Shown here in pieces: positions 9,189 through 48,842 of a stretch of DNA of 64,000 nucleotides. How positions within the stretch are numbered: the stretch's first letter is position 1; the number at the start of each line of letters is the position of its first letter. The stretch is from Escherichia coli. Its GTDB lineage: Bacteria > Pseudomonadota > Gammaproteobacteria > Enterobacterales > Enterobacteriaceae. The stretch lies in NCBI GenBank assembly GCA_902500125.1, contig GCA_902500125.1_4132.1. One strand, 5' to 3'. A program made the translations under genes and the position numbers. The notes beneath the pieces were generated by a model. The model did not search any database. It was not told the DNA's origin and worked only from the letters and a program-made list of their open reading frames with translations.

Positions 9189-9830
9189 ATGACTAAGCAA
9201 GACATATTCAAAACTTTAATTGACATTTTGCGTCCATCAAAAACTCGTTGTGCGATGGAGTTTGATATTCCTTATGCTGAACGCGTAATCTTTCCACAAG
9301 TTAAAGCTGCTGGACTTACTTTGCTTGGAATGGGGATGTACTCTGTAGTAGTTGAACATAAAAACTATCCTGGACGTGCATTTAAAGTAACCACTTCACG
9401 CTGGGATGGTTTTCGTGCTTATGCAAAGTACTGCATTGAAAACGCAGGAACCAAGTTTCTTCCAGTGATCTACAGTGCCAACGAACAAGGAAACTTTGGA
9501 TGGTATGAGATGGACAAGTACTATCCTATAATTAAACAAAAAAATAATTATGATGACTTTGTTAGTACTAAAATTGGAGATTTATATTCTTATGCACATG
9601 CTGGTCAGTACGCTACTTCAGTGAATGATATGCGTGGAAATTCTGAAGAGATTGCTATTGCAACGGTCGCTGCTAACATCATGAAAGAGTTTCACGGGCG
9701 TTTTGTACCAGACATTCATTCAAGTAATGTGATGATGGATAAAGATGGCAATGTATTCATTACTGATCCTCTTTCGTGTGATGTACGTAGAGAAATACCA
9801 GTTACTGAAGAAGATCCAGTTTTTTATTGA
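9189..9830 (+). CDS. protein-kinase-like protein
   Basis: GMGMYSVV..AFKV Gly-loop/Lys and DIHSSNVMMDKDGNVFITD catalytic-loop-like motifs; GAGGA RBS. Confidence 0.5.
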   Translation: MTKQDIFKTLIDILRPSKTRCAMEFDIPYAERVIFPQVKAAGLTLLGMGMYSVVVEHKNYPGRAFKVTTSRWDGFRAYAKYCIENAGTKFLPVIYSANEQGNFGWYEMDKYYPIIKQKNNYDDFVSTKIGDLYSYAHAGQYATSVNDMRGNSEEIAIATVAANIMKEFHGRFVPDIHSSNVMMDKDGNVFITDPLSCDVRREIPVTEEDPVFY

Positions 9831-9891
9831 CAGAACTGATGTTCTGGTGTATTCTTAATAAACCATAAAAATTGCGGTAAAGGATAAAATC

Positions 9892-10173
9892 ATGCGTTCA
9901 TTTGAAAACTTAATAGGTAAGCATCTTTTATCTGAAATTGATGCAGACGTTAAAGAATTATCCAAATCAAAAAGTTACATTCATTTGGATGAACTGTTTA
10001 TTAAGTACGGTGAGATTGGTTTTAAGTCATTATTTGTTTTTACTATGAAAGTACATAGTTTAAAGTACTTCGATTTGAGTTCTAAAGATGGTGAACCGAA
10101 TCTATATTACATGTATTACCTTAAGAACAAAGATGAAGCTAATACATTACTCTCTGAATATATATTGGGGTAA
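9892..10173 (+). CDS. hypothetical protein (93 aa)
   Basis: Track ORF; AAGGA RBS. Confidence 0.5.
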   Translation: MRSFENLIGKHLLSEIDADVKELSKSKSYIHLDELFIKYGEIGFKSLFVFTMKVHSLKYFDLSSKDGEPNLYYMYYLKNKDEANTLLSEYILG

Positions 10174-10175
10174 AA

Positions 10176-10514
10176 ATGGAACAATATTTTGAATTAATAA
10201 ACAAAGTATCATTTTATGTAGTATCTTTGGTTTGGGTGTATTATATGTTTTGCTATATTATTGCATTCTTCCGATATACTACTTTATATGAACGTATCTA
10301 CTATGATGCCCCAATTTCATTCTTGATGTTTTGTGCATGTACGTGGGGAATATTAGAAGTACTGATATGTGGGTATAGTACTGATGAATTAAATCTGGTA
10401 TCGGTGTTGACTGGGTTTTCATTTGTTGTTATGATAGCTGCCGTTCCAGTATGGTTGTTCTTTGGACTAGTTCATCGCATTGATATATGGCGTTCTAATA
10501 TCCCTGAAAAGTAA
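10176..10514 (+). CDS. membrane protein, paralog family (C-terminal RxN[ILM]PE)
   Basis: Track ORF; hydrophobic helices; ends WRSNIPEK. Confidence 0.55.
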   Translation: MEQYFELINKVSFYVVSLVWVYYMFCYIIAFFRYTTLYERIYYDAPISFLMFCACTWGILEVLICGYSTDELNLVSVLTGFSFVVMIAAVPVWLFFGLVHRIDIWRSNIPEK

Positions 10515-10517
10515 GGA

Positions 10518-10865
10518 TTGGAAATGATTTATTACACTAACATGTTTGCCTATGCTGTTGCTTGCATTTACATTGTTTACTTCTTATTCGGTGGAGTACT
10601 GTGCTTCTTTAAGTACAAAACGTTGTTCAACCGAATGTACCCAAATCATCCAATTGTAGTTGTACTTTTGATTCTTTCAGTTTCTCAAATAATCGTTGAA
10701 ACTACAATGGGTATCAGTAGTGTACATTATAGTTTTGGCACTATAGTAATTATTACTATGCTTATTGCATACATTTTAGTACTTGGATATGGTATCTTTG
10801 GTAATATTGGTATGAAAATGTATCATCGAATTAAAACATTACGTGATAATCTACCGGAGCGTTGA
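10518..10865 (+). CDS. membrane protein, paralog family
   Basis: Track ORF; ends LRDNLPER. Confidence 0.55.
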   Translation: MEMIYYTNMFAYAVACIYIVYFLFGGVLCFFKYKTLFNRMYPNHPIVVVLLILSVSQIIVETTMGISSVHYSFGTIVIITMLIAYILVLGYGIFGNIGMKMYHRIKTLRDNLPER

Positions 10866-10866
10866 T

Positions 10867-11211
10867 ATGTATAATTTGAACCTAATCTCATATATTATAA
10901 CAACACTGTTTACATTCTATGCCTTTGTTGGTATAATCCTACTGTACTTTAAATTTTATAAAGTGTTTAACCGTTTCTATCCTTCAATGGAGAATGAGTT
11001 TTTCTTTGTGTTGTACGTAGGTTACACATTAATGGCTACATGTTTCACTGTAGCCGATGGTGTCATCGGCATTAAAACTGATTCCCCAAATGGTAGTACG
11101 CTGGTTGCATTTATTCTTACTGGATTCCTTGCAACTTATATTGCCTTCATTACAACATGGTCAGTGGTTGAATTTCTCTTGCGACTACGAAAGAATATGC
11201 CGAATCGATAG
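10867..11211 (+). CDS. membrane protein, paralog family
   Basis: Internal ATG of track ORF 10843..11211 after GGAG; ends LRKNMPNR. Confidence 0.55.
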   Translation: MYNLNLISYIITTLFTFYAFVGIILLYFKFYKVFNRFYPSMENEFFFVLYVGYTLMATCFTVADGVIGIKTDSPNGSTLVAFILTGFLATYIAFITTWSVVEFLLRLRKNMPNR

Positions 11212-11220
11212 GAGACATAT

Positions 11221-11475
11221 ATGTTTGCGTTGCGTAATAAAAACACTAAAGAATTATTATGTATTGATACCGTATGGGATTGTGCGGGATCAACTACAGT
11301 TCTTGAAGAAGGAACTGGATATTGCGTGTTTGTTGTTCATGATAGGAATGAACTCGAATTATTACTTGCTGAGTTCAATGCTGGTGGTAATCCTAACAGT
11401 ACTGAATACCCTGAGATTATCAATCCAGCACCACCAGGCTCTTATGAAATTCTACAACTGTGGGAGTTGAAGTAA
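11221..11475 (+). CDS. hypothetical protein (84 aa)
   Basis: Track ORF; GGAG RBS. Confidence 0.5.
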   Translation: MFALRNKNTKELLCIDTVWDCAGSTTVLEEGTGYCVFVVHDRNELELLLAEFNAGGNPNSTEYPEIINPAPPGSYEILQLWELK

Positions 11476-12962: not shown

Positions 12963-13334
12963 ATGAATATAGATTTGAAAGGTGCAACCCGAACTGTCAT
13001 ACTCATTGGGGAATATGCTATCAAGATTCCAACCTTTAAAAGTTGGAAGCTATTCTTAACAGGGATGATAGCTAACCTCAATGAACGTTCGTGGATGCAG
13101 TACTCCAATCGTAGTGATAGTAGTATCTGTCCTACGTTGTGGTCATCATGTACTGGACTAGTAACTGTACAGAAACGTTGTAAGCCAGTGCAACATAGGG
13201 GTTTATTTTGGGTGGAGTTGTGTGCTTTAGCATTGAATTCAGAGTTAAGTACTGACTTCTTCTATTCAGATGCGAAGCCAGAAAACTTTGGGTATCTGTG
13301 TGGTAAGTTGGTTAAACTTGATTATGGAGATTAA
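12963..13334 (+). CDS. mini protein-kinase-like protein
   Basis: GATRTVILIGEYAIK, DAKPENFG and KLDYGD in kinase motif order; internal ATG of track ORF. Confidence 0.45.
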   Translation: MNIDLKGATRTVILIGEYAIKIPTFKSWKLFLTGMIANLNERSWMQYSNRSDSSICPTLWSSCTGLVTVQKRCKPVQHRGLFWVELCALALNSELSTDFFYSDAKPENFGYLCGKLVKLDYGD

Positions 13335-38737: not shown

Positions 38738-38790
38738 TTTTTGTAGTATCGTAGTACTGAGATACTTTGAAAATAGTTTTAAGAAAGTAG

Positions 38791-38941: not shown

Positions 38942-39424
38942 ATGGCTAATGTAAAATCATTCATCAAAGCACTGGTAGCAAATGAAACTAACGTCGCGGC
39001 TGAGATCCTGGCTGAACTGGATAACGATACCATGAAAGCGGTACGCAATAATTTTAACATCGCGTACAGTACTGCGAAAGAACTACAAGCAAATAAAGCG
39101 GCAGAGATTGAAGCAGCGAAGGCGGCCCGTGAAGCAGAACTACAAGCAACAATTGAAAGTATCCAGGCGGCAGTAGTTGGGCTGGATCTGGAAGTAGTTA
39201 CCGAGATGGCACAAAAAGCCCTGGCGGTTAAGTACGGGGAAGATAAGCCGGAATCTAAGCCTAAAAAATGGATTCAAGAACGTGTAGCGGTAGTACTTGA
39301 TAACGGGGAAGAATATCTGATTCCGGTGCGTGGTAACTGCATTGCGGTAGTACTGGATGCTATCAAAGAAAGCGGATTGACTCGCGAGGAATGGATCGAA
39401 GCTCATCGCAAAGTTGAAGCATAA
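38942..39424 (+). CDS. hypothetical protein (160 aa), Ala/Glu-rich
   Basis: Internal ATG of track ORF 38927..39424 after GAGGA. Confidence 0.55.
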   Translation: MANVKSFIKALVANETNVAAEILAELDNDTMKAVRNNFNIAYSTAKELQANKAAEIEAAKAAREAELQATIESIQAAVVGLDLEVVTEMAQKALAVKYGEDKPESKPKKWIQERVAVVLDNGEEYLIPVRGNCIAVVLDAIKESGLTREEWIEAHRKVEA

Positions 39425-39445
39425 CAATTAAAGTACTGAATCATT

Positions 39446-39471
39446 AGCCCACTTATACAGTGGGCTTTTTT
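39446..39471 (+). terminator. rho-independent terminator
   Basis: AGCCCACT-TATAC-AGTGGGCT plus TTTTTT. Confidence 0.75.
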
Positions 39472-39625
39472 GTGTTTATCGTTTACCAGGCCACCAGCAC
39501 CGCCTAGAAACGATTCTAACGTATTAAACTGTTTATCTGATGCATTGCCCTAGCTGGTGGCGTTAAAGTCGTTAGAATGCGATTGAGTGCGTTTAAAGTA
39601 TTTTGCAAAAAGTAATAAAAAGTAC

Positions 39626-39684
39626 TTGCACGATTAAGAGATTAGCGTATAATGTTTTACATCGAGAGGGGGAAACGGTTCTCC
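39626..39684 (+). promoter_or_regulatory. promoter plus leader hairpin unit
   Basis: TTGCAC-N16-TATAAT then GGGGA-AACGGT-TCTCC. Confidence 0.5.
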
Positions 39685-39708
39685 TTCCAAATCAAAGGAA
39701 TCAAAACA

Positions 39709-39936
39709 ATGGCTATCGTAATCGCTTATGTAACTGGTACTACTGGCACTTCTTCTACTGTTGCTGTAATTACCAACAAGAAAGGTGCGGAATTACATTC
39801 TGCAATGGATACCTGGGCGGTAAATGAGTTCGGTCAGTGGGCAAGTGTAGCATATGTTGAAACCTATCAAGTGCCAACCATTAGCTTAACGGATCTCGGT
39901 GTAGATCGTATCCTTTGCCTGGATGAATTAAATTAA
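39709..39936 (+). CDS. hypothetical protein (75 aa)
   Basis: Internal ATG of track ORF 39652..39936. Confidence 0.55.
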   Translation: MAIVIAYVTGTTGTSSTVAVITNKKGAELHSAMDTWAVNEFGQWASVAYVETYQVPTISLTDLGVDRILCLDELN

Positions 39937-39944
39937 AAAAGTAC

Positions 39945-40005
39945 TTGCAAAGTAAGTTGGATAAAGTATAATACATTACATCAAGGGGAGAAAATGGTTC
40001 TCCCC
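39945..40005 (+). promoter_or_regulatory. promoter plus leader hairpin unit
   Basis: TTGCAA-N16-TATAAT then GGGGAGA-AAATGG-TTCTCCCC. Confidence 0.55.
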
Positions 40006-40023
40006 ACTAAGAGGAAACTAAAA

Positions 40024-40167
40024 ATGAAAACTTGTCAATGTGGTAAAAAATCTATTACTGGTTTGAAACGGGGCGTTGCTCTTTGTCAGTATCACTATAA
40101 CGCTCAGGTATGGGGTAAAGAGTGGGCCGACCAGGTGGAAGCAGTAAAGAAAGCAAAAAGTAAGTAA
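40024..40167 (+). CDS. small Cys/His-containing protein (47 aa)
   Basis: ATG after AAGAGGAAA RBS; MKTCQCGKK..CQYHY; below track cutoff. Confidence 0.45.
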   Translation: MKTCQCGKKSITGLKRGVALCQYHYNAQVWGKEWADQVEAVKKAKSK

Positions 40168-40186
40168 AATTATTATCACAGTACTA

Positions 40187-40215
40187 TTGACATAGATTGA
40201 TAGTACTGGCATAAT
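40187..40215 (+). promoter_or_regulatory. sigma70-like promoter
   Basis: TTGACA-N17-CATAAT flanked by AGTACT. Confidence 0.5.
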
Positions 40216-40248
40216 AGATTTTATCAAGACAACTAAGAGGAAACAATA

Positions 40249-40461
40249 ATGGCTATCATCACAAAAATCAAAGTAAACAAATCACTGGTTAAGCTGGAAG
40301 AAGTGAAAGAAGGTTATAAAGTATCGTGGTGCGGCATGTATCGGATTTTTACAGATGTTGACGATGCAATCAATTACTACACTGACACGGTAAAAAACTT
40401 TGTTCGTGCTGATGTGGTTATGGCAGTGGCAACACACAAAGCATCGAAAGAAAGTAAGTAA
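40249..40461 (+). CDS. hypothetical protein (70 aa)
   Basis: Track ORF; AAGAGGAAA RBS. Confidence 0.55.
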   Translation: MAIITKIKVNKSLVKLEEVKEGYKVSWCGMYRIFTDVDDAINYYTDTVKNFVRADVVMAVATHKASKESK

Positions 40462-40480
40462 AAATATTATCACAGTACTA

Positions 40481-40509
40481 TTGACATAGTTTGATAGTAC
40501 TGGCATAAT
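40481..40509 (+). promoter_or_regulatory. sigma70-like promoter (duplicate of 40187 unit)
   Basis: Same about 70-nt promoter/leader repeated. Confidence 0.5.
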
Positions 40510-40542
40510 AGATTTTATCAAGACAACTAAGAGGAAATTAAA

Positions 40543-40887
40543 ATGGCTAATATCAACACTATCGCAAAACAAAATATCAACCTGTCTTCTGTTGAAGTTG
40601 TACATATTGCCGCTCGGCGTTGGTTCCAGGCTTCATATGGTAACACTTATTTCTCTTTAAGTGTAGACGTAGAAATTGATGGTAATTTTATTGAAGTAGT
40701 AAACGTGCCGTTCCAATATGGATACGGGGATCACTTTGACACTGTAGCAATGGAAGAATTTAGCAAGGTTATTAATATGGAAGATAAAGAGTTTTTACGC
40801 GGTTCTTATCTTTCCCGTTTTTGCCGTGACAATAATATCACTGTTTACAGTTCGGTAACTGATGTTAAACGCAAAAAAGATCTTTAA
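40543..40887 (+). CDS. hypothetical protein, paralog of 46523..46846
   Basis: Track ORF; shared ..YGYG.. and C-terminal DVKRKKD. Confidence 0.55.
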   Translation: MANINTIAKQNINLSSVEVVHIAARRWFQASYGNTYFSLSVDVEIDGNFIEVVNVPFQYGYGDHFDTVAMEEFSKVINMEDKEFLRGSYLSRFCRDNNITVYSSVTDVKRKKDL

Positions 40888-40967
40888 TTAGCTTTACTTT
40901 ATGCAGATACTTTGATATAGTGTCTGCATAGGGGAAAGAAATTAAATTAACTTAAGAGGATCGTATA

Positions 40968-41237
40968 ATGAAAAATATCAGTACTTTAATCGATGCAGGT
41001 ACACATGTTCGGCGGTCTATGGTTGCAACCAGTACTACAAAACAAGTAGCGAGCGGTTATCTTGTATTTGTGCACGATGGTAAACTCCTGGAACGTTCAA
41101 TCAATTTTGATGTTAAAAACAATTGCCGTTTTATTATCTTTCGCCGTGAACAATATAAGATCGACATTCCAGCGAAGCCCATTAGCGGTGCGTACAATGT
41201 GCAATCATTGTTTGAGCGTCAACCATACACCTATTAA
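40968..41237 (+). CDS. hypothetical protein (89 aa)
   Basis: Track ORF; AAGAGGA RBS. Confidence 0.5.
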   Translation: MKNISTLIDAGTHVRRSMVATSTTKQVASGYLVFVHDGKLLERSINFDVKNNCRFIIFRREQYKIDIPAKPISGAYNVQSLFERQPYTY

Positions 41238-41288
41238 TCAAAACATCGTTAGCGGTCGATTCAGGCCGCTTATATTGGGGATTATACC

Positions 41289-41561
41289 ATGAACGTTAAT
41301 CAAGTACTGAATGAGATCGAAAGCATCATTAAACCGATGAAGCGTACTGATGCTATGTTAACACCGGAAGAATGCCGCCTTTATGAGCGTTACAGCGTCG
41401 AACAAGTCCAGGCAATGGCTATGGCTACCCCAGCCGTTAAACCGCCTGAGAATGCGTTACAGGACGTTACAGGGGATTATATCATCAATCCAGTACTAGG
41501 GAAGATGGCTGCAATCACCGAAGATCAACAAGACTACTTAAGCCAGTACTTAAAAGGTTAA
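41289..41561 (+). CDS. hypothetical protein (90 aa)
   Basis: Track ORF. Confidence 0.5.
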   Translation: MNVNQVLNEIESIIKPMKRTDAMLTPEECRLYERYSVEQVQAMAMATPAVKPPENALQDVTGDYIINPVLGKMAAITEDQQDYLSQYLKG

Positions 41562-41566
41562 TTAAT

Positions 41567-41776
41567 ATGCTTACTGTACAGGATAAGATCGACATCTTAA
41601 AGGTTAATATGTATGTGATTGATGCCGTACCTGGTAAAGTATTTGCATACGATGACACTACTGTAAGCGATTTCTACTATAGCCAGGCCGTGGGGGATCT
41701 TTCTGTACAGTCGGTTATTGAAAACGTAGTTAATGCAGCGTATGAGCATTTACTTTCAAATAGTACTTGCAATTAG
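41567..41776 (+). CDS. hypothetical protein (69 aa)
   Basis: Track ORF. Confidence 0.5.
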   Translation: MLTVQDKIDILKVNMYVIDAVPGKVFAYDDTTVSDFYYSQAVGDLSVQSVIENVVNAAYEHLLSNSTCN

Positions 41777-41826
41777 TTTTTAAACGCGTATAATGTTTTA
41801 CATGAAGGGGAGAAATGATTCTCCCC
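41766..41826 (+). promoter_or_regulatory. promoter plus leader hairpin unit
   Basis: TTGCAA-N17-TATAAT then GGGGAGA-AATGAT-TCTCCCC. Confidence 0.55.
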
Positions 41827-41845
41827 ACTAATTAAGGAATATGAA

Positions 41846-41992
41846 ATGAAAGCATCAAAAAAGAGTAATACTAAGAAAGCACGTTCACCTTTCGCTGGGG
41901 TATTCCCTTTACGTTTCGTTGATGAAGTAGTTTCCTACCCGCCGGGCCTTACTCCTGAGATGGTAGAAAGTTTGCGTAAATCTAAAAAATAG
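41846..41992 (+). CDS. small basic protein (48 aa)
   Basis: ATG after AAGGAATATGAA; below track cutoff. Confidence 0.4.
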   Translation: MKASKKSNTKKARSPFAGVFPLRFVDEVVSYPPGLTPEMVESLRKSKK

Positions 41993-41995
41993 TAC

Positions 41996-42055
41996 TTGCA
42001 ATTAGTTTTTAGTACTGTATAATAGTTTACATGAAGGGGAGAAATGATTCTCCCC
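41996..42055 (+). promoter_or_regulatory. promoter plus leader hairpin unit
   Basis: TTGCAA-N16-TATAAT then GGGGAGA-AATGAT-TCTCCCC. Confidence 0.55.
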
Positions 42056-42073
42056 AATAACAGGAGAAACAAA

Positions 42074-42226
42074 ATGAAACAATACAACGCTCGGTTTGAT
42101 GTTACTATCGGTAACGGCAAAGGTCAATTCTCTTTCAGTACTCGCAAAAGTTATACAGAAAACTTCCTGCGTAATTGTGCACTGACCGCCGCTCAAATTA
42201 AACATTATTTTCAGGCTAAAAAATGA
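42074..42226 (+). CDS. hypothetical protein (50 aa)
   Basis: Internal ATG of track ORF 42044..42226 after CAGGAGAAACAAA. Confidence 0.5.
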   Translation: MKQYNARFDVTIGNGKGQFSFSTRKSYTENFLRNCALTAAQIKHYFQAKK

Positions 42227-42312
42227 AATCATTAGCTTATTACAGTTCAGCGGTGATCGGTGCATTGATCGCGGCATTGTTAGTAACCTATCTATTCTTT
42301 ATGGTGATTTAA
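42223..42312 (+). CDS. small hydrophobic peptide (29 aa)
   Basis: ATGA-coupled to upstream gene; single TM-like segment. Confidence 0.3.
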   Translation: MKSLAYYSSAVIGALIAALLVTYLFFMVI

Positions 42313-42453
42313 ATGAATCCTAACGGTTTAATTTACAGTACTCCTAAAACGAAAGCAGATAAAGCGAAAGCACGTAAAGCGAAAGTAAAGGAGTACATTA
42401 AGCAAGGCATGACGCGAAAGGCCGCACTACTCAGAGTAAAGGCTGAAAAATAA
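42313..42453 (+). CDS. small Lys-rich protein (46 aa)
   Basis: Translationally coupled; followed by terminator module. Confidence 0.3.
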   Translation: MNPNGLIYSTPKTKADKAKARKAKVKEYIKQGMTRKAALLRVKAEK

Positions 42454-42462
42454 TTGAAAAAA

Positions 42463-42545
42463 GGGTTGACTCCGGTCAGTCCCTTTGCTATTATATATAC
42501 ATACCAGCGATACACTGGCGGCCCATAGGGTGCACAAATGTATCT
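42463..42545 (+). promoter_or_regulatory. extended terminator-promoter module with CCCATAGGGTGC motif
   Basis: GGGTTGAC-TCCG-GTCAGTCCC hairpin, TTGACT/TATTAT, then GCCCATAGGGTGCACAAATGTATC. Confidence 0.55.
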
Positions 42546-42588
42546 ATTATATAAGTATTGAGTACTGAAAACTATTTTTAAAAAGTAC

Positions 42589-42647
42589 TTGCAAACTATC
42601 TCAATAAGCGTATAATGTTTTACATCGAAAGGGGAAACGGTTTCCCC
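42589..42647 (+). promoter_or_regulatory. promoter plus leader hairpin unit
   Basis: TTGCAA-N16-TATAAT then GGGGAAA-CGG-TTTCCCC. Confidence 0.55.
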
Positions 42648-42667
42648 TGGTAATAAGGAAACAAATC

Positions 42668-43009
42668 ATGACTATCTCAATTGCTCAATCTAACTTTGAA
42701 AATGAAATCATCGCCCAGGCACTGCGTTTAAATGATGGTCGGGCCGAAATTAATTACGGTTTCAATTCAGGCGGTTGTGAAAAATATCAGTACTTTGTAA
42801 CGGCTGATGGCGGTGTCCTGGGTATCAATACAGTTATTGTAAACATCCAAAAAATTAATTTCAATGATCCAGACGATAGCCAGTTTTACATCACGGGCGT
42901 AGACGTGAACTATGAGGATGACTCACTAACTGATGACTACACTGGTGAAACGTTAGAAAGTGCATACTGTGAAGATGATTATCAGTCCGGTCCAGAAGAT
43001 TTCGAATAA
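42668..43009 (+). CDS. hypothetical protein (113 aa)
   Basis: Track ORF; AAGGAAACAAA RBS. Confidence 0.55.
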   Translation: MTISIAQSNFENEIIAQALRLNDGRAEINYGFNSGGCEKYQYFVTADGGVLGINTVIVNIQKINFNDPDDSQFYITGVDVNYEDDSLTDDYTGETLESAYCEDDYQSGPEDFE

Positions 43010-43023
43010 TATAAAAAAATAGT

Positions 43024-43083
43024 TTGACAATAGATTATAGTACTGTATAATAGTTTACATCAAGGGGAGAAAAACTTCTCCCC
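43024..43083 (+). promoter_or_regulatory. promoter plus leader hairpin unit
   Basis: TTGACA-N16-TATAAT then GGGGAGAA-AAAC-TTCTCCCC. Confidence 0.55.
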
Positions 43084-43105
43084 ACTAACAGAGAGAGAAA
43101 ACAAA

Positions 43106-43318
43106 ATGGCTAATATCTGCACTGTACTGAAAAATGCAAAACAAGTTTTATTTTCTGATCACGATCATTTAAACAAGGATATTACTGGCGTTCGGAATAT
43201 CAAAGATGTAAAAAGTGTTATGGGTATCTATTGCAATATGAAACGTGTTGGAACGTTCGGCGACAAAGTACTATACCAGGCAGGGGATTACAATTTTACA
43301 CTGACTATCATTAACTAA
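43106..43318 (+). CDS. hypothetical protein (70 aa)
   Basis: Track ORF. Confidence 0.55.
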   Translation: MANICTVLKNAKQVLFSDHDHLNKDITGVRNIKDVKSVMGIYCNMKRVGTFGDKVLYQAGDYNFTLTIIN

Positions 43319-43337
43319 AAATATATTACCAGTACTA

Positions 43338-43365
43338 TTGACATAGTTTGATAGTACTGTATAAT
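43338..43365 (+). promoter_or_regulatory. sigma70-like promoter
   Basis: TTGACA-N16-TATAAT. Confidence 0.5.
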
Positions 43366-43409
43366 AAGTTTTATAAACAGTAGTTAACTTAACCTAAGAG
43401 AGAAATAAA

Positions 43410-43553
43410 ATGATCGCACTGGATTCATTCATCGACGCAGTACTGGCAAAAACTGGCGAGGATCTGACCGCAGAACAATACGCGATGATCGAGCAATGTC
43501 AGCAAGACGGTAAATCGGTGAAAGATACTGTTAAGATTATCCGCAAGATGTAA
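43410..43553 (+). CDS. small protein (47 aa)
   Basis: ATG after AAGAGAGAAATAAA; below track cutoff. Confidence 0.4.
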   Translation: MIALDSFIDAVLAKTGEDLTAEQYAMIEQCQQDGKSVKDTVKIIRKM

Positions 43554-43560
43554 TATTATA

Positions 43561-43590
43561 GCCCACTGGTCAACGCTGGTGGGCTTTAAT
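43561..43590 (+). terminator. rho-independent terminator
   Basis: GCCCAC-loop-GTGGGC plus TTT. Confidence 0.55.
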
Positions 43591-43652
43591 CCTTTACCCT
43601 ATACAATGCCAGTACTAAACCGTTTATCTCGTTAGAATGCGTTACAGGACGT

Positions 43653-43856
43653 TTGACAATGATTAGCATGAAATCAGTACAAAAACAAATAGAAACATTA
43701 TCAAAAATTAAACGTAAACAGTACTCGTTAGAATATACAATCAATGGTAACTATCATCTAATGAAAGAGAATAATTTTATTGTCATTGATGAATCATTGC
43801 AAATCATTAGTATAGTACTGAAAGCATTAATCAATGACAGAAAAAAATTAAAATAA
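43653..43856 (+). CDS. hypothetical protein (AT-rich)
   Basis: Track ORF; start uncertain, alternative ATGs at 43659 and 43668. Confidence 0.4.
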   Translation: MTMISMKSVQKQIETLSKIKRKQYSLEYTINGNYHLMKENNFIVIDESLQIISIVLKALINDRKKLK

Positions 43857-44185
43857 TCTATTGACAATATCATCCAGTACTGGCATAATACTTACATCAA
43901 GACGAGAACGTCACTAACCCATAGGGTGCACAAATGTAACTATATAATATCGATCAATAAATGATCAAAAAAGTACTGGATCAATTTAACATAAGGAGTA
44001 TAATTCTGATCAATTCTTGATCAAAGGCAATATACGCAGTTGAATTTATATAGACATTACAAAGGCGTTACTATCCGTGGTAATGCTGGTGGATATGTAG
44101 TATCATATGGTTTGAATAAGATTAGCACTAGTAGTATTATTGTAGCATTACAGTACTATAGTATTTTTATAATGAGGTTAAAATA

Positions 44186-44443
44186 ATGGCAGTAGGATAC
44201 GCGAAAGACGGGGCCGAACAAGACGAGATTCACGCAGTGATTCAGGCCGCCGTTAACCACGCTAGAAAGCAAATTAACGCACAAAGAGAATCACTGGTAC
44301 ATTGCCTCGACTGCGGCGATAAAATCCCTGAGAATCGACGCCAGGCCGTTATAGGGTGCATGTATTGTATTACTTGCCAGGAGGATCATGATAGTACTTT
44401 TAAAAGAGATCCGCGTAATTGTTGGCATAGATCTATGAGATAA
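44186..44443 (+). CDS. C4 zinc-finger protein, DksA/TraR-like
   Basis: CLDCGDKIPENRR..VIGCMYCITCQ spacing matches TraR/DksA-type finger. Confidence 0.55.
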   Translation: MAVGYAKDGAEQDEIHAVIQAAVNHARKQINAQRESLVHCLDCGDKIPENRRQAVIGCMYCITCQEDHDSTFKRDPRNCWHRSMR

Positions 44444-44450
44444 AAAGTAA

Positions 44451-44478
44451 TTGACAGTACTGAAAGATAGTGTATAAT
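44451..44478 (+). promoter_or_regulatory. sigma70-like promoter
   Basis: TTGACA-N16-TATAAT. Confidence 0.5.
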
Positions 44479-44507
44479 GTTTTATATCTTAACTGAGGAT
44501 AGTAATC

Positions 44508-44864
44508 ATGGGAATACAACATATCACGCGTACTACTGACAATGGAGAGATCACTGGTTATCAGGTACAGGGCAAAGTAGCACAATTGCAGTACTGGTTT
44601 GTTAAACGTGGAATCATTGCACCGGATCTTGATTATGACCGTGTAGCGTTTATTGATTCTCTTTATGTTGATCCTGATAGTCGGGGCAATGGTGAAGGTA
44701 ACGAATTAATGAATGCCTTTATCGATGCCGCCGATGATTCAGATTGTATCATCTTAGAATGCGATACGGGAGAAGATAACGCCTTTAATCTTAAAGAATG
44801 GTACGAAGGTTTCGGATTCGAGGTATTGATAGATAGTGAATATCCTATCATGATTTTATCATAG
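44508..44864 (+). CDS. possible small GNAT-type acetyltransferase
   Basis: Track ORF; LYVDPDSRGNGEGNELMNAF resembles acetyl-CoA-binding motif; weak. Confidence 0.35.
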   Translation: MGIQHITRTTDNGEITGYQVQGKVAQLQYWFVKRGIIAPDLDYDRVAFIDSLYVDPDSRGNGEGNELMNAFIDAADDSDCIILECDTGEDNAFNLKEWYEGFGFEVLIDSEYPIMILS

Positions 44865-44867
44865 TAC

Positions 44868-44924
44868 TTGCATTTAGTTTTCAGTACTGTTATAGTACTT
44901 GCATCAAGGGGAAACATCTTCCCC
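44868..44924 (+). promoter_or_regulatory. promoter plus leader hairpin unit
   Basis: TTGCAT-N17-TATAGT then GGGGAA-ACATC-TTCCCC. Confidence 0.5.
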
Positions 44925-44942
44925 TACTAAGAGGAAATAAAA

Positions 44943-45131
44943 ATGGAAAACTTATCAAGTATTTTAGTACAAGATGATTTCGGTAATCCTGGAAGTGCTA
45001 TCATTGTTCGGGGCAATAAAGCAACGTTTGTTATTGCTGGTGGACCCGTACAGCGTAGCATTAAAAATAATGCTGTTACCATTAATAATGTACGCTATCG
45101 CTTAGATAAAGAATTAATTCATAAACTGTAA
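44943..45131 (+). CDS. hypothetical protein (62 aa)
   Basis: Track ORF; AAGAGGAAATAAA RBS. Confidence 0.55.
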   Translation: MENLSSILVQDDFGNPGSAIIVRGNKATFVIAGGPVQRSIKNNAVTINNVRYRLDKELIHKL

Positions 45132-45161
45132 AAAAGTACTGGATAATAGATTATAGTACTG

Positions 45162-45199
45162 TATAATAGTTTACATGAAGGGGAGAAATGATTCTCCCC
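45162..45199 (+). promoter_or_regulatory. promoter -10 plus leader hairpin
   Basis: TATAAT then GGGGAGA-AATGAT-TCTCCCC. Confidence 0.5.
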
Positions 45200-45216
45200 A
45201 CTAAGAGGAAAGAAAA

Positions 45217-45429
45217 ATGCAAGGTCAACTAATCGTTCGTAAATGGTCTGATACTAACGAAAAACCGTGGGATGTACAATACATCGCCCCCAATGGTGAA
45301 TCCAGATATCAACCAGGTGTAACGCATAGTACTGAGCAATTCGCCGCCGCTCATCGCGAACGTCTGTTACAATCAATGCAGCAAGGTTTCGGTGAAAAAT
45401 TCATTCAGGATCATTGGCTGAAAGATTAA
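45217..45429 (+). CDS. hypothetical protein (70 aa)
   Basis: Track ORF. Confidence 0.55.
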   Translation: MQGQLIVRKWSDTNEKPWDVQYIAPNGESRYQPGVTHSTEQFAAAHRERLLQSMQQGFGEKFIQDHWLKD

Positions 45430-45436
45430 AAAGTAC

Positions 45437-45494
45437 TTGCACTGTACTGAATAAAGTGTATAATGTTTTATATCGGAAGGGGAATAGTTCCCCT
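45437..45494 (+). promoter_or_regulatory. promoter plus leader hairpin unit
   Basis: TTGCAC-N16-TATAAT then GGGGAA-TAGT-TCCCC. Confidence 0.55.
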
Positions 45495-45515
45495 CCTAAC
45501 AAAGAGGAAAGTATA

Positions 45516-45689
45516 ATGGTCCAGGTAGAATTAACAGTACTGAAAGATCTGTTTTATCGGATTGGTACTACTGGCGAATATCCGAAGGGTGATAATGCAA
45601 AACTTTACGTATCACTCGACTTATGGCAACGCGAACAATTAGCAACGGCCTGGCGTAAAGGCAAAGCAGATAGCGAGGTGAAAGCATGA
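45516..45689 (+). CDS. hypothetical protein (57 aa)
   Basis: Internal ATG of track ORF 45414..45689 after AAGAGGAAAGTATA. Confidence 0.5.
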   Translation: MVQVELTVLKDLFYRIGTTGEYPKGDNAKLYVSLDLWQREQLATAWRKGKADSEVKA

Positions 45690-45835
45690 AAGAATTCTTA
45701 TTTGAAGTAGTGTTTCAAGGTGTCGGTAGTAACCAACTGATTCGCTCAAGTGGTTATAATGTTAACCAGGCATGGAATAACATTAAACAAATGTACCCGA
45801 ACGCTATCACCTATCGCAACCCGAAAGAAGTTTAA
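45686..45835 (+). CDS. small protein (49 aa)
   Basis: ATGA-coupled; below track cutoff. Confidence 0.35.
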   Translation: MKEFLFEVVFQGVGSNQLIRSSGYNVNQAWNNIKQMYPNAITYRNPKEV

Positions 45836-45849
45836 AAATAATTGAAAAA

Positions 45850-45930
45850 GGGATTGACTCCGGTCAGTCCCTTTGCTATTATATACGCATAGAAACAAAT
45901 TAGCCCACCGGGTGCATAAATGTATCTATT
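45850..45930 (+). promoter_or_regulatory. extended terminator-promoter module with CCCACCGGGTGC motif
   Basis: Same module as 42463, 48857 and 51610. Confidence 0.55.
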
Positions 45931-45982
45931 GTTTGCTGGTGGCTAGTACTATCAAGTACTGAAAACTATTTTTAAAAAGTAC

Positions 45983-46126
45983 TTGCATTGTAATTAGAAT
46001 CAAGTATAATGTTTTACATCAGGACGGGGAACGAAACAAGTAACCCCGTTAAGTAGTCCAGGAGTAAGACATACGAAAAACTCCCCTGATAAAATAGTTT
46101 GACAATAGAAAGTAAACGAGTATAAT
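45983..46126 (+). promoter_or_regulatory. dual-promoter module enclosing conserved about 80-nt element (copy 2)
   Basis: Near-identical to 35844..35989, including element 46021-46098. Confidence 0.45.
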
Positions 46127-46159
46127 ACTTACATCAACCACTGATAAGGAAACATTAAA

Positions 46160-46435
46160 ATGCGGATTCTACTGACAGCTAACGAAATCGAACAAGTACT
46201 GACTACTAACCTGGAACAATGGAAACGTGATGCAGATATCCAGGCGGTTCAATGGCTTAACGATAAGTTAACGCCGGATGACTTAAGCAAGATTGTAGAT
46301 CCTCAATTCTACGAAGATATTCACGACACGGCTTTAAGCGTCGAGGATGTACTTGATAAGCATTACATTAATACCGATTTACAGGTTTACGGGCGTAAAA
46401 ACTTTATCACTATTCACGACATTTACAATACTTAA
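46160..46435 (+). CDS. hypothetical protein (91 aa)
   Basis: Track ORF. Confidence 0.55.
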   Translation: MRILLTANEIEQVLTTNLEQWKRDADIQAVQWLNDKLTPDDLSKIVDPQFYEDIHDTALSVEDVLDKHYINTDLQVYGRKNFITIHDIYNT

Positions 46436-46438
46436 GTA

Positions 46439-46500
46439 TTGACAAAGTATCTTAGTACTGTATAATAGTTTACATCAAGGCGGGGAAATGGTTCCCCTCC
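46439..46500 (+). promoter_or_regulatory. promoter plus leader hairpin unit
   Basis: TTGACA-N16-TATAAT then GGGGAA-ATGG-TTCCCC. Confidence 0.55.
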
Positions 46501-46522
46501 TAACAAAGAGAGAGAAATAAAA

Positions 46523-46846
46523 ATGGCTATGATCCTTACCCAGAAAGTGGAATTGAAAATTGTAACCTCCTTTGACATTAAAGTTAATCGCTGGACTGAT
46601 CGGAACGGCAATACTTACCACTCTTGCTACGTGTCTGCGTTAATTGGCGACCGCTGGGAAGACCTGGGACACGAAACCTTTACATACGGTTACGGTACGC
46701 AAGGCGAATACACTGGTTTGGAGATCATTAAAGAAACCGTTATAGGTTTCAACCCGAAAGAAAAAGTTATGCACCGCATCGAAAAAGAGATTAACAAAGA
46801 AATAACAGTTCGCTACTACGATGTAAAACGTAAGAAAGACATGTAA
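46523..46846 (+). CDS. hypothetical protein, paralog of 40543..40887
   Basis: Track ORF. Confidence 0.55.
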   Translation: MAMILTQKVELKIVTSFDIKVNRWTDRNGNTYHSCYVSALIGDRWEDLGHETFTYGYGTQGEYTGLEIIKETVIGFNPKEKVMHRIEKEINKEITVRYYDVKRKKDM

Positions 46847-46868
46847 TAGAATCCATTTAAAGTACTAT

Positions 46869-46897
46869 TTGACATTGCCCAGATAGTACTTTATAAT
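46869..46897 (+). promoter_or_regulatory. sigma70-like promoter
   Basis: TTGACA-N17-TATAAT. Confidence 0.5.
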
Positions 46898-46941
46898 AGA
46901 CTCTAACTTGTAGTACTAACTCAACTAATAGGATGTATACC

Positions 46942-47337
46942 ATGATTACTAAATTCTACGCTACCCGTGAAGCTGCCCGTATTGTTGCACGCGAGGAAGG
47001 AGCAGCATTTAAAGACATGGGAACGACAGCACCGAAAGGTCAACGCTGGGCCGTACAGTTCAAAGAAATCTCTGATATTGTGAATTCACCTGAGCCAGTA
47101 CTAACAGCAGCAGAACTAAAACGAGCGGATATGCTGGCGGCAATACTTGACGCACAAGATGAGTTTATCGCTGATTCTGATATCAAAGTACAGGTAAACC
47201 ACACCGCATGGACTCACGCGGATCACCTGGCAAACCTTAAGCGTCCAAGTGAACTGATTCGCAACCAGAAAGAGATCCGACATGATCGTAAGGGTAATCG
47301 TGTAACAGTATACAGTAAACGCCGCCAGGTTATCTAA
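46942..47337 (+). CDS. hypothetical protein, paralog of 35010..35276
   Basis: Internal ATG of track ORF 46933..47337. Confidence 0.55.
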   Translation: MITKFYATREAARIVAREEGAAFKDMGTTAPKGQRWAVQFKEISDIVNSPEPVLTAAELKRADMLAAILDAQDEFIADSDIKVQVNHTAWTHADHLANLKRPSELIRNQKEIRHDRKGNRVTVYSKRRQVI

Positions 47338-47359
47338 TAACTTGCAGTACTAACAACAC

Positions 47360-47384
47360 GGCGGGATCAGTTCCCGCCTTTTTT
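47360..47384 (+). terminator. rho-independent terminator
   Basis: GGCGGGA-TCAG-TTCCCGCC plus TTTTTT. Confidence 0.7.
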
Positions 47385-47398
47385 ATAGGACAAACAAA

Positions 47399-47653
47399 AT
47401 GATTAAGGTTCAACTATATAAAGATAACATCTTACGGGTACACTATAAAGCACCGAAGAGAATCATCACAAAGGCCGTACAGCTTGCTAATGAGTTTATT
47501 AATGGTAACCTATTACCAAGGAAGTTAAGCAACGGGAAACTGCGTGTAATCGACGTGGACACTAACAACAGGATAGTAATCGAGAACACAGGAAAAATAA
47601 ACCTTTATGAGCATCAACAATACAATAAGAAAATAAAACTAATATCACGTTGA
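47399..47653 (+). CDS. hypothetical protein (84 aa)
   Basis: Track ORF; TAGGACAAACAAA upstream. Confidence 0.5.
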   Translation: MIKVQLYKDNILRVHYKAPKRIITKAVQLANEFINGNLLPRKLSNGKLRVIDVDTNNRIVIENTGKINLYEHQQYNKKIKLISR

Positions 47654-47678
47654 CAGTACTCAAATGTTTTAGTATTAT
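47650..47678 (+). promoter_or_regulatory. sigma70-like promoter
   Basis: TTGACA-N17-TATTAT. Confidence 0.45.
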
Positions 47679-47706
47679 GTACACATACCAACACGGGAGA
47701 AACAAA

Positions 47707-47925
47707 ATGAAATTATCTAAAATCGAAAAGAAAACTATTGATGAAGCAGTTAAGCACGGTTATACCTTTCGTAATGATTCACATTTTACCAATTTTCAAC
47801 AGGGGTATCGTACTATTAAAAAACTAATTGACAAAGGTTTATTAGTTGAAGTCAATAATGGGAACGGTATCGAGTATCAGCCAACCCAAGACGCATTATC
47901 TTTAAAGAAATATAATATTATCTAA
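47707..47925 (+). CDS. hypothetical protein (72 aa)
   Basis: Internal ATG of track ORF 47650..47925 after GGGAGAAACAAA. Confidence 0.5.
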   Translation: MKLSKIEKKTIDEAVKHGYTFRNDSHFTNFQQGYRTIKKLIDKGLLVEVNNGNGIEYQPTQDALSLKKYNII

Positions 47926-47954
47926 TTGACAGTACTCAAATGTTTTAGTACTAT
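47926..47954 (+). promoter_or_regulatory. sigma70-like promoter
   Basis: TTGACA-N17-TACTAT. Confidence 0.45.
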
Positions 47955-47983
47955 ATGTACATACCAACACGGGGAAAAACAAA

Positions 47984-48226
47984 ATGATTACTTTAGAAAA
48001 ACGTATCAAAGAAACTACATCGCTGGTGGAATTGTTAACAGTACTCAAATGTAAAACAACACCATTCAGCACGCCGGACTTTATTAATATGGTTGATGTT
48101 AATGGTCGCTATCGTATCACGGTCGAACAAGGAGCGGCGAAAGTATTCAGTACTAAAAACACGAAGGAAGTGATCCACGCCGTTAATGTTAAAAAAGTAG
48201 TTGCCATTGATAGTAAAGTACTGTAA
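47984..48226 (+). CDS. hypothetical protein (80 aa)
   Basis: Track ORF. Confidence 0.5.
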   Translation: MITLEKRIKETTSLVELLTVLKCKTTPFSTPDFINMVDVNGRYRITVEQGAAKVFSTKNTKEVIHAVNVKKVVAIDSKVL

Positions 48227-48257
48227 TATAGTTTCATTAACTCAAGGAGAACATGCA

Positions 48258-48842
48258 ATGCGTAATTATACTAAATTCATCCGTACACTGTCAGAAATGG
48301 AAACCAACAAAGAGATCCTTTCAGCTTGTCGGTTAGCTGGCCTGGAGATCATCGGTGCTGGTTCTTCCCGTATAGTTTTCGCTTTAAATGATCGGTTAGT
48401 GATTAAGGTCGCGAATTGTGATGCGGGTGTAGAACAAAATGAAACTGAATGTAAGGTATGGAATTTTTTAGACTATGACCGCCCTCAGTTGAAACAGTAC
48501 TTTGCAAAGGTGCATATGCATTTATGCGATCCTGATAATATGTTTATCGTTATGGATCGGTTGAGTACTGCAAGCAAAGGTAGTGTGAAGCACGTAAACG
48601 CGTGCAATGAATTAAAGTACAATATTAAACGTAATGCAATCGAACGCCAGCACCGCTTTGCTGATGCACTACAACACGTCGATGATACATTATCAACACT
48701 AACGATAAGAGATATCAGAAAACAGAATATCGGCCAGGATCGTAATGGCCTTATTAAAGTACTTGATTACGGTTTAACCTGCAATATCTGGAATCAGTAC
48801 TATAAAAAGCGTGATGTGGCAGCAAGTAAGGTAACACGATAA
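48258..48842 (+). CDS. protein-kinase-like protein
   Basis: IGAGSSRIVFALNDRLVIKVA and IRDIRKQNIGQDRNGLIKVLDYG motifs; AAGGAGA RBS. Confidence 0.5.
   Translation: MRNYTKFIRTLSEMETNKEILSACRLAGLEIIGAGSSRIVFALNDRLVIKVANCDAGVEQNETECKVWNFLDYDRPQLKQYFAKVHMHLCDPDNMFIVMDRLSTASKGSVKHVNACNELKYNIKRNAIERQHRFADALQHVDDTLSTLTIRDIRKQNIGQDRNGLIKVLDYGLTCNIWNQYYKKRDVAASKVTR

Follow-up and report, generated by a model that had tools for sequence, protein, structure and literature searches.

The question raised by this locus is whether three short open reading frames in one segment of phage DNA, each carrying motifs of a protein kinase, do encode kinases, and what such enzymes would do in the infected cell. The window analysed, a stretch of 64,000 nucleotides, derives from an Asteriusvirus (a 121Q/G17-like E. 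coli jumbo phage) with 97-98% DNA identity to G17, phAPEC6 and others. The genes, here K1 (9189..9830), K2 (12963..13334) and K3 (48258..48842), all lie on the plus strand and encode proteins of 213, 123 and 194 amino acids, with translations that match exactly those quoted in the initial annotation. That annotation had read all three as protein-kinase-like, with the motifs of a kinase in their proper sequence; this order is borne out, the quoted motifs being family-conserved positions, and the kinase likeness is supported by PHROG matches, profile-profile links and a fold search with K2. The PHROG E-values (4e-91 for K1, 5.3e-43 for K2 and 4.3e-41 for K3) argue firmly for more than chance resemblance.

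The three proteins are probably real members of the protein-kinase-like superfamily, that is, phage-borne minimal kinases that comprise Hanks subdomains I-VII and would phosphorylate Ser/Thr. Each has the Gly-rich loop and strand-3 Lys, the D-x-x-x-x-N catalytic loop and, after strands 7-8, the Asp that binds metal in the DFG motif (D193 of D-P-L in K1; D120 and D170 of D-Y-G in K2 and K3, respectively), and structure comparison finds the kinase fold, shown for K2. All stop 1-25 residues past the DFG-equivalent and lack a complete C-lobe; what remains is the N-lobe and, beyond it, helix E, the catalytic loop and the Asp for metal binding. None of the three reaches the gathering threshold of the canonical Pfam domain PF00069, with 17.2 bits for K3 against a cut-off of 31.7 and no match for K1 or K2. 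A regular expression for the ordered motifs matched only K1, K2 and K3 among 581 six-frame ORFs of the window, compared to 0.04 per shuffled set; it is supporting evidence only, because the pattern was composed after the three had been seen. Profile searches found no further kinase paralogue in the window.

K1 is, on its sequence, evidently a homologue of the T7 gp0.7 kinase (T7K) without the C-terminal shut-off/DNA-binding domain. It matches phrog_15752, and also phrog_2828, the T7K PHROG (E 7.8e-17); BLASTP aligns it over 178 residues with residues 68-230 of T7 gp0.7 at 26% identity (E 5e-9), with the catalytic loop and D-P-x in register. Its motifs are G47/G49 of the G-loop, Lys66, the catalytic loop D175-I-H-S-S-N180 and the DFG-equivalent D193-P-L. 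Across 21 K1 homologues and T7 gp0.7 itself, G47, G49, K66, D175, H177, N180, D193 and P194 are invariant, and the only candidate for the helix-C acidic residue is the invariant D73. The initial annotation had given the DFG-like site as "ITD"; the full equivalent is D193-P194-L195, like the D-P-V of T7K. Translation is assigned to ATG 9189, preceded by the ribosome-binding site GAGGA (9177-9181). An alternative ATG at 9156, directly past a terminator hairpin and lacking a ribosome-binding site, was rejected. The reverse strand of the ORF is full of stops.

T7K has been shown experimentally to be a hyperactive, promiscuous kinase that phosphorylates most of the host proteome and counteracts the cell's defences, disarming several defence systems; its kinase domain ends 27 residues past D-P-V (PMC13645617). 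Jumbophage homologues, including the orthologue group of G17, have been described, and this clade likewise lacks the shut-off (SO) domain and varies at the third position of D-P-V (Bartolec et al. 2026, PMC13645617). With gp0.7 (PHROG 2828/15752, CDD PHA00451, and PF27024, which is carried by K1 homologues), K1 shares the G-x-G loop, strand-3 Lys, D-x-H-x-x-N and I-T-D-P, and S196 of K1 falls where T7K has Ser216, its autophosphorylation site. K1 differs in its length (213 residues versus 359 for T7K), ending 18 residues past D-P-L with the shut-off domain absent, in having D-P-L rather than D-P-V, and in the residue preceding the catalytic Asn, which is Ser in K1 and Gly in T7K. A kinase domain that ends soon after the DFG-equivalent is common to T7K, K1, K2 and K3, and K1-K3, like T7K, are phage-encoded and, probably, early. 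K2 and K3 differ from T7K in having D-Y-G, nearer to canonical DFG, in place of a D-P-V-type motif, and in two features absent from T7K, an invariant G-loop Arg and a helix-C motif Q-N-x-x-E.

K2 and K3 are recognised by their profiles as the short and long forms of a second family, PHROG 4301 (of unknown function), which K3 links to the T7K family. K3 matches positions 13-185 of the PHROG 4301 profile. It begins with two N-terminal helices, followed by G33-x-G35-S-S-R38, Lys50, Q60-N61-x-x-E64, D152-I-R-K-Q-N157, D170-Y-G172 and a tail of about 22 residues. G33, G35, K50, E64, D152, N157 and D170 are conserved; E64 is invariant and lies inside a predicted helix (55-67), D152 is likewise invariant; close homologues keep N157 at a conservation of at least 90%, and distant tandem-domain relatives vary at this Asn. 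Translation is assigned to ATG 48258, with ribosome-binding site AAGGAG at 48244-48249. The K3 family profile finds MAP2K4/7 (E 1.5e-4 to 1e-3), the G-loop, catalytic loop and DFG falling into register, and 8 of 13 family members match Pfam Pkinase below threshold. Against the K1/T7K alignment, hhalign gives 91% probability (E 1e-6, 157 columns), so that K3 joins the T7K family at profile level only, and a K3-type profile recovers K1 in the window (E 1.4e-5). The structure model of K3 is poor (pLDDT 52.5), and its fold is therefore drawn from sequence profiles.

K2 is the shortest of the three, and the initial annotation had been hesitant over so short a copy, which it counted as 124 residues. 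Its motifs are G7-x-T-R10 (a single-Gly form of the Gly-rich loop), Lys21, N38/E41 in helix C, D103-A-K-P-E-N108 and D120-Y-G122, and the stop codon falls one residue past D-Y-G. The start is ATG 12963, 8 nt past the upstream stop; homologues start at the same residue, and there is no Shine-Dalgarno sequence upstream of this ATG. K2 matches positions 40-167 of the 225 in the PHROG 4301 profile, and hhalign joins K2-type and K3-type alignments at 98% (E 1.3e-13). Compared directly by profile, K2 and the T7K family show no significant similarity, and K2 has no significant match among solved kinase sequences, the best being TTK (E 0.17). Structure prediction, one of the checks suggested with the initial annotation, yielded a kinase fold: the AlphaFold2 model is confident (pLDDT 90.1, pTM 0.80), its best 50 Foldseek matches in the PDB are all kinases, and E41 lies inside a predicted helix (28-43). 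Among 127 diverse homologues, K21 and D120 are present in all, E41 and G7 in 126 each and K105 in 105, while position 103 is D in 96 and E in 31, and position 108 is N in 100 and S in 27.

The hesitation over length is removed by the family at large, in which shortness is a conserved state and not a truncation. K2 has 2053 cluster representatives at E<=1e-3, the best 150 of which are mostly 110-135 amino acids long, with the profile match running through to D-Y-G. Homologues occur in 114 phage records of many genera, and the family ranges through jumbo phages, T4-like phages, Pseudomonas siphoviruses and the morons of lambdoid prophages, almost entirely unannotated. K1 and K3 are already recognised as kinases: K1 orthologues are annotated "protein kinase", and K3 is annotated as a kinase in fEgEco12, ph0011, K64-1 and fENko-Kae01 and has been called "another protein kinase" (PMC11895373). 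It is K2 that belongs to a large and mostly unannotated phage family. The earlier view that several minimal kinase genes in one phage segment would be unusual was thus overstated, the more so as other jumbo phages have more than one such gene (two proteins of CBB; two places in Aeromonas phage PS1).

Among cellular kinases, the eukaryotic-type Ser/Thr enzymes (PF00069; TTK/Mps1, MAP2K4/7, PknB) share the order of catalytic motifs and provide the best structural matches. D-L-K-P-A-N-F...I-D-F-G of TTK aligns with D-A-K-P-E-N-F-G...L-D-Y-G of K2, and MAP2K7 aligns with the K3 profile from G-loop to DFG; the post-DFG half of these kinases (activation segment, APE motif, helices F-I) is missing from K1-K3. 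OspG, NleH and HopBF1 have no sequence-level relationship to the three; their solved chains have 160-176 residues, K2 being some 40-50 residues shorter, and they work inside eukaryotic cells as effectors of type III secretion, whereas K1-K3 are phage proteins. The atypical kinases RIO/Bud32 and the RNA kinase ArkI of archaea are cellular, have 170-290 residues and retain the C-lobe core, and no sequence relationship of K1-K3 to them was detected.

What K2-type proteins do can be proposed tentatively, with the chances put somewhat below even: proteins of about 110-135 residues that run to D-Y-G may be autonomous, active protein kinases with the smallest kinase domains known, in essence an N-lobe and a catalytic loop without helix F or a substrate lobe, forming a large phage family with unregulated, promiscuous anti-host or anti-defence activity like that of T7K, and K1, K2 and K3 may be a layered set of three enzymes in Rak2-like jumbo phages. 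An unlikely alternative is that K2, and possibly K3, is a phosphotransferase whose substrate is not a protein but RNA, a nucleotide, a sugar or some other small molecule. Such substrates are served by the kinase core in aminoglycoside phosphotransferases and in ArkI, a tRNA kinase; K2 has no peptide-binding lobe, and its relatives can keep suggestive company, lying 1 nt upstream of the RNA ligase gene rnlB in T4-like phage JS10, adjoining an RNA ligase in phage NC-G, and standing among ligase, NTP hydrolase and exonuclease genes in PaMx11. These neighbourhoods are, however, not conserved across lineages, differing between jumbo phage, T4-like phage and lambdoid prophage. The D-x-K-P-x-N loop of K2 is a Ser/Thr protein-kinase signature and matches S-D-L-K-P-A-N-F of TTK residue for residue, and PHROG 4301 is connected, by way of K3, with T7K, which is proven to be a protein kinase.

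Slightly less probable again is that K2 is a pseudokinase or a module that binds ATP without catalysis, or is active only with a host or phage protein that supplies the missing C-lobe. By stopping one residue past D-Y-G, K2 does without helix F, which forms the hydrophobic core in canonical kinases, and without everything after it, so that stability or activity may need a partner; OspG, which requires E2~ubiquitin, and HopBF1, which engages HSP90, are models for such dependence. The sub-group with Glu for the catalytic Asp and Ser for the Asn also speaks for this alternative. Against a pseudokinase is the retention, across the 127 clusters at 30-66% identity, of all catalytic residues and not just those that bind ATP, which is unusual for pseudokinases. 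A partner is disfavoured by the confident monomer model, which suggests a self-contained fold, and by the lack of a co-occurring partner gene: the ORF abutting K2 (13336-13605) occurs in 39 records, versus 114 for K2, and only in Rak2-like phages, and prophage copies stand alone. That the motifs agree by coincidence, or that K2 is what is left of a decaying K3-like gene, so that these ORFs are not functional kinase-fold genes, might be argued from the lack of a Pfam or NCBIfam match for K2 and from the failure of K1, K2 and K3 to detect one another by pairwise phmmer, but is highly improbable, being already contradicted by the PHROG and profile links, the fold search, the retained length and the wide distribution.

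Early in infection, K1-K3 would most likely use ATP to phosphorylate host or defence proteins on Ser/Thr. Mg-ATP would be bound by the Gly-rich loop, strand-3 Lys, helix-C Glu, catalytic-loop Asn and the Asp of D-[YP]-x, and the catalytic-loop Asp would transfer the gamma-phosphate to Ser/Thr hydroxyls. Lacking both an activation segment and a lobe for substrate binding, K1-K3 may be constitutively active with little sequence restriction, like T7K. They would serve to modify proteins of the host and to neutralise defence systems, and we infer, as the initial annotation did, that they may be host-takeover enzymes. If K2 works as a kinase, it would show how small a kinase core can be, subdomains I-VII being enough. 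It also provides a testable functional label for some two thousand sequence clusters, nearly all "hypothetical protein", that include accessory genes in Salmonella lambdoid prophages; this family is the part worth following up. Should K1-K3 prove inactive, or not act on host proteins, the finding becomes an improvement in annotation.

Early production would come, for K1, from a sigma-70-like promoter and, for K3, from the terminal repeat, a timing read from gene position and consensus promoter matches only. Immediately 5' of K1 (9125..9160, plus strand), a terminator-like hairpin (9125-9150) overlaps a promoter-like sequence (TTGACT, 18 nt, TATGAT, with extended TG) recognised by consensus match only; ARNOLD terminators are annotated at the equivalent relative place in G17, and the surroundings of K1 show no enrichment of promoter-like sites. 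A similar hairpin with an overlapping promoter-like site, again by consensus match only, lies directly 3' of K3 (48854..48889, plus strand). One E. coli jumbo phage holds a T7K homologue together with two relatives further removed, K3 being the one placed in the terminal repeat. In the close relative vB_Ec-M-J a direct terminal repeat of 21,525 bp is annotated; it aligns with 32398..53090 of the window, and K3 sits about 15.9 kb inside this stretch. It lies likewise inside the annotated terminal repeat of Klebsiella phage fENko-Kae01, and hence in two genera, and records that include both repeats have two copies of K3.

Three open reading frames on the plus strand of the window, whose translations were reproduced as quoted in the initial annotation, are referred to here as K1 (9189-9830, 213 aa), K2 (12963-13334, 123 aa) and K3 (48258-48842, 194 aa). 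The start codon of K1 (ATG 9189) has GAGGA 7 nt upstream; an alternative ATG at 9156, which is the start in some records, directly follows a terminator hairpin and lacks a ribosome-binding site. K3 (ATG 48258) is preceded by AAGGAG 8 nt upstream, while the K2 start (ATG 12963), 8 nt past the preceding stop codon, lacks a Shine-Dalgarno sequence and is the residue at which its homologues also start. Of the 581 six-frame ORFs, a pattern of ordered kinase motifs matched these three alone, where shuffled sets gave 0.04 matches each; this result is supporting evidence only, because the pattern was written after the three ORFs had been seen. Five family profiles, searched against all six-frame ORFs, found no further kinase paralogues in the window.

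K1 is an already known kinase homologue. Two PHROG families recognise it, 15752 ("protein kinase; inhibitor of host transcription..."; E 4e-91) and 2828, to which the T7 kinase belongs (E 8e-17), and BLASTP aligns it to residues 68-230 of T7 gp0.7 with 26% identity (E 5e-9). When K1 is aligned with 20 homologues and the T7 kinase domain, the invariant residues are G47, G49, K66, D73, D175, H177, N180, I191, T192, D193 and P194. The D193-P-L195 of K1 has D213-P-V215 as its counterpart in the T7 enzyme, and the adjacent S196 aligns with Ser216, the inhibitory autophosphorylation site of gp0.7. Because K1 ends 18 residues past D-P-L, it is without the shut-off domain. Precomputed Pfam domains place PF27024.1 on all of the K1 homologues P0172-P0198; K1 itself had no Pfam match in a Pfam-A set that does not include PF27024, and an NCBIfam search of the kinase ORFs returned nothing. 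Orthologues are labelled "protein kinase" in 121Q, G17, phAPEC6 and others, and the Sharanji paper names the orthologue WNN14432.1 a T7 kinase homologue (PMC11895373). Homologues of the K1 type are also described by Bartolec et al. (PMC13645617), and from the G17 annotation we infer that the G17 entry of that study is the K1 orthologue.

K3 is known at the level of annotation, being labelled a kinase in the fEgEco12, ph0011, K64-1 and fENko-Kae01 records and described, as WNN14351.1, as "another protein kinase, which function is unknown" in the Sharanji paper (PMC11895373). It belongs to PHROG 4301 (E 4e-41), a family of unknown function. None of the 13 close cluster representatives found has a Pfam domain on record, and 8 of these 13 family members match Pfam Pkinase, every score falling below threshold. 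Family invariants include G33, G35, S36, R38, K50, Q60, N61, E64, D152, D170 and G172, and N157 is conserved in at least 90%. The family profile, searched against the PDB, aligns from the G-loop to the DFG with MAP2K4 (E 1.5e-4) and MAP2K7 (E about 5e-4 to 1e-3); it reaches 315 PDB sequences at E<=10, and among the 60 matches listed nearly all are kinases. A broader K3-type alignment also takes in single domains excised from metagenomic phage proteins that carry 3-4 copies in tandem. By hhalign it matches the alignment of K1 and the T7 kinase over 157 columns with a probability of 91% (E 1e-6); the matched stretch begins at the helix that precedes the G-loop ("AGL..LG.G" in both) and extends to the metal site. 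The profile of this broader alignment detects K1 in the window at E 1.4e-5. PADLOC gave weak matches of K3 to PD-T4-6, a defence gene of the kinase type (E about 1e-3), which are noted without a claim of membership. The AlphaFold2 model of K3, built from 13 sequences, is poor (pLDDT 52.5, with only the N-lobe, residues 1-66, at 68-87) and was left out of the fold search.

The tandem metagenomic proteins (P0034, P0085, P0104, P0105 and P0125) are 638-969 aa long and carry 3-4 K3-type kinase-like domains each, with the motifs G-x-G-S-S-R...K...Q-N-x-x-E...D...W-G...L-D-Y-G; His, Gln or Thr often takes the place of the Asn in the catalytic loop. Similarly long proteins of uncultured Myoviridae (608 and 751 aa) occur among the BFVD structural matches to the K2 model.

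K2 joins, as a new member, a family with almost no annotation. It too falls in PHROG 4301 (E 5e-43), as a short form, and has no match in Pfam, NCBIfam or PADLOC. All 15 close homologues are 118-127 aa long and end one residue past D-Y-G. From 1.84 billion cluster representatives, a joint profile of K2 and K3 retrieved 2053 proteins with E<=1e-3, of which 682 had E<=1e-10; among the best 150 of the 2053, most are 110-135 aa with the profile match reaching D-Y-G. These lengths rule out a recent truncation or pseudogene. Conservation was counted in 127 of the joint-profile matches, with 27-66% identity to K2: K21 and D120 are present in all 127, G7, R10 and E41 in 126, N38 and G110 in 125, and K105 in 105, while position 103 is Asp in 96 and Glu in 31 and position 108 is Asn in 100 and Ser in 27. 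The K3-type and K2-type alignments match each other with a probability of 98.1% (hhalign, E 1.3e-13), and the K2-type profile detects K3 in the window at E 1.7e-9. Direct hhalign comparison of the K2 and T7 kinase families gave no significant match. Against the PDB, a 15-sequence K2 profile found nothing and the 127-sequence profile found TTK only (E 0.17), whose S-D-L-K-P-A-N-F...I-D-F-G aligns with S-D-A-K-P-E-N-F-G...L-D-Y-G of K2. As judged from these profile comparisons, the family connection runs from K1 and the T7 kinase through K3 to K2.

Structure prediction, one of the checks proposed in the initial annotation, indicated a kinase fold for K2, the model of K3 being too poor to judge. 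The AlphaFold2 model of K2 is confident (pLDDT 90.1, pTM 0.80) and consists, in order, of three strands, a long helix (28-43), two strands, a helix at 79-92, a short helix, two strands and D120. As modelled, the succession of elements corresponds to that of a kinase: strands 1-3, helix C, strands 4-5, helix E, catalytic loop, strands 7-8 and DFG. All of the top 50 Foldseek matches in the PDB are protein kinases (TTK and Legionella Lpg2603; probability 0.92-1.0). Searched against viral models, K2 is closest to uncharacterised phage proteins; these include the K3 orthologue of RaK2 and a "protein kinase domain-containing protein" of RP12. The kinase call on 12963-13334 had been tentative, the ORF being short for a kinase; that length proves to be a conserved property of the family, and both model and Foldseek matches are kinase-like.

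K1, K2, K3 and the T7 kinase domain (residues 1-242, with D-P-V at 213-215) all end shortly past their DFG-equivalent, and hence lack the activation segment and helices F-I. A kinase ending at DFG, the architecture of K2, is an extreme case of the T7 arrangement. The T7 enzyme is a hyperactive kinase with no sequence-motif preference, whose off-switch is autophosphorylation only, and it acts against host defences, retron and DarTG among them (PMC13645617). By analogy, K1, K3 and K2 would be Ser/Thr phosphotransferases that depend on Mg-ATP, are active constitutively and are synthesised early in infection. The results themselves establish homology, the fold of K2, the conserved catalytic residues and the positions in the genome; catalysis, protein substrates, timing and role are inferred. 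The indirect grounds for early synthesis are, for K3, its place in the terminal repeat and, for K1, the terminator and sigma-70-like promoter match (TTGACT, 18 nt, TATGAT) that precede it. K2 might instead be a pseudokinase or a partner-dependent enzyme, given that helix F is missing and that the smallest solved kinase chains among the matches (160-176 residues) exceed K2 by 37-53 residues; we regard this as improbable, since its catalytic residues are conserved as well as its binding residues, the model of the monomer has high confidence and no partner gene accompanies it. Chance resemblance or gene decay is excluded by the homology, conservation and structure results for K1, K3 and K2. That a jumbo phage encodes kinases will not surprise the specialist; what merits experimental attention is the 123-aa kinase core, conserved across about two thousand sequence clusters, and the presence of three related kinases in a single phage.

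Genes of the K2 type occur in 114 phage records, from Asteriusvirus, Aeromonas phages, T4-like Dhakavirus, jumbo phages of Erwinia, Klebsiella and Ralstonia, and Pseudomonas PaMx11-like siphoviruses. Among the 40 matches listed, 38 are annotated as hypothetical and the other two as [quoted passage not shown] and "serine/threonine kinase". Their neighbours vary among lineages. In Salmonella lambdoid prophages a 45%-identical homologue is found by itself between Rz (lysis) and Nu1 (small terminase), where accessory genes typically lie; a scan of representative bacterial genomes with the K2 alignment gave no confirmed locus. In T4-like Dhakavirus JS10 (L011, 2477-2845) the gene lies 1 nt upstream of the RNA ligase gene rnlB. 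The ORF at 13336-13605, which starts 1 nt past the K2 stop codon, was considered as the missing C-lobe of a split kinase and rejected, because it belongs to the unrelated PHROG 8563 and is itself confined to Rak2-like phages (39 records), whereas K2-type genes span many lineages and stand alone in Salmonella prophages or have other neighbours. The occurrence in PaMx11-like phages raised a link to thymidine-hypermodification kinases (5-HMUDK), which is unsupported; the PaMx11 homologue sits in a ligase/exonuclease region. K3 homologues (60 records) are confined to Rak2-like jumbo phages. In vB_Ec-M-J and Klebsiella phage fENko-Kae01 the gene lies about 16-17 kb inside the annotated terminal repeat, and records that keep both repeats have two copies.

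DNA searches assign the window (G+C content 35.6%) to the genus Asteriusvirus, the 121Q/PBECO4/G17-like E. coli jumbo phages of about 350-380 kb, with 96-98% identity around the kinase ORFs to G17, phAPEC6, Sharanji and others. Window position 32,398 aligns with position 1 of vB_Ec-M-J, where the annotated direct terminal repeat of that phage (21,525 bp) starts, and the matching region extends to about 53,090; the window therefore comprises the right-hand unique genome end and a single repeat copy. On this alignment, the ORF-poor stretch at about 32.1-34.2 kb probably marks where the genome physically ends, and the window is joined across a terminal repeat that has been collapsed. By tblastn, two sets of genes present in G17, 121Q and Sharanji are absent from the 64 kb: three small ORFs upstream of K1 (G17_109-111; gap at about 9120), and an endonuclease V (pyrimidine-dimer glycosylase) gene with one small ORF downstream of K2 (gap at about 13610-13670).

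The segment 47000-50000 matches 4-10 separate places per related genome; as terminal-repeat duplication would account for two, this points to dispersed short repeats across small-gene arrays, probably intergenic modules. A composite module recurs at 9125-9160, 14037-14072 and 48854-48889, between transcription units: an 11-12-bp G+C-containing hairpin with TTGACT on its 5' arm, overlapped by a TAT(G/T)AT -10 box, a predicted fusion of terminator and promoter. Terminator-like sites are enriched at 8.8-14.2 kb (7, against 2.1 expected). On the minus strand, 18562-27816 holds a tandem array of seven paralogous genes (269-411 aa) matching PHROG 4219 ("regulator of chromosome condensation", RCC1-like repeats; E 1e-43 to 3e-106), with an unrelated phrog_4474 gene at 24642-25379 in its midst. 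Depletion of Ser, Thr and Tyr in early genes is a reported pattern in T7-like phages; here these residues make up 17-18% in the flanking small plus-strand genes, presumed early, and 25.7% in the Ser- and Thr-rich proteins of the array, an atypical comparator in a window that holds no proper late-gene set.
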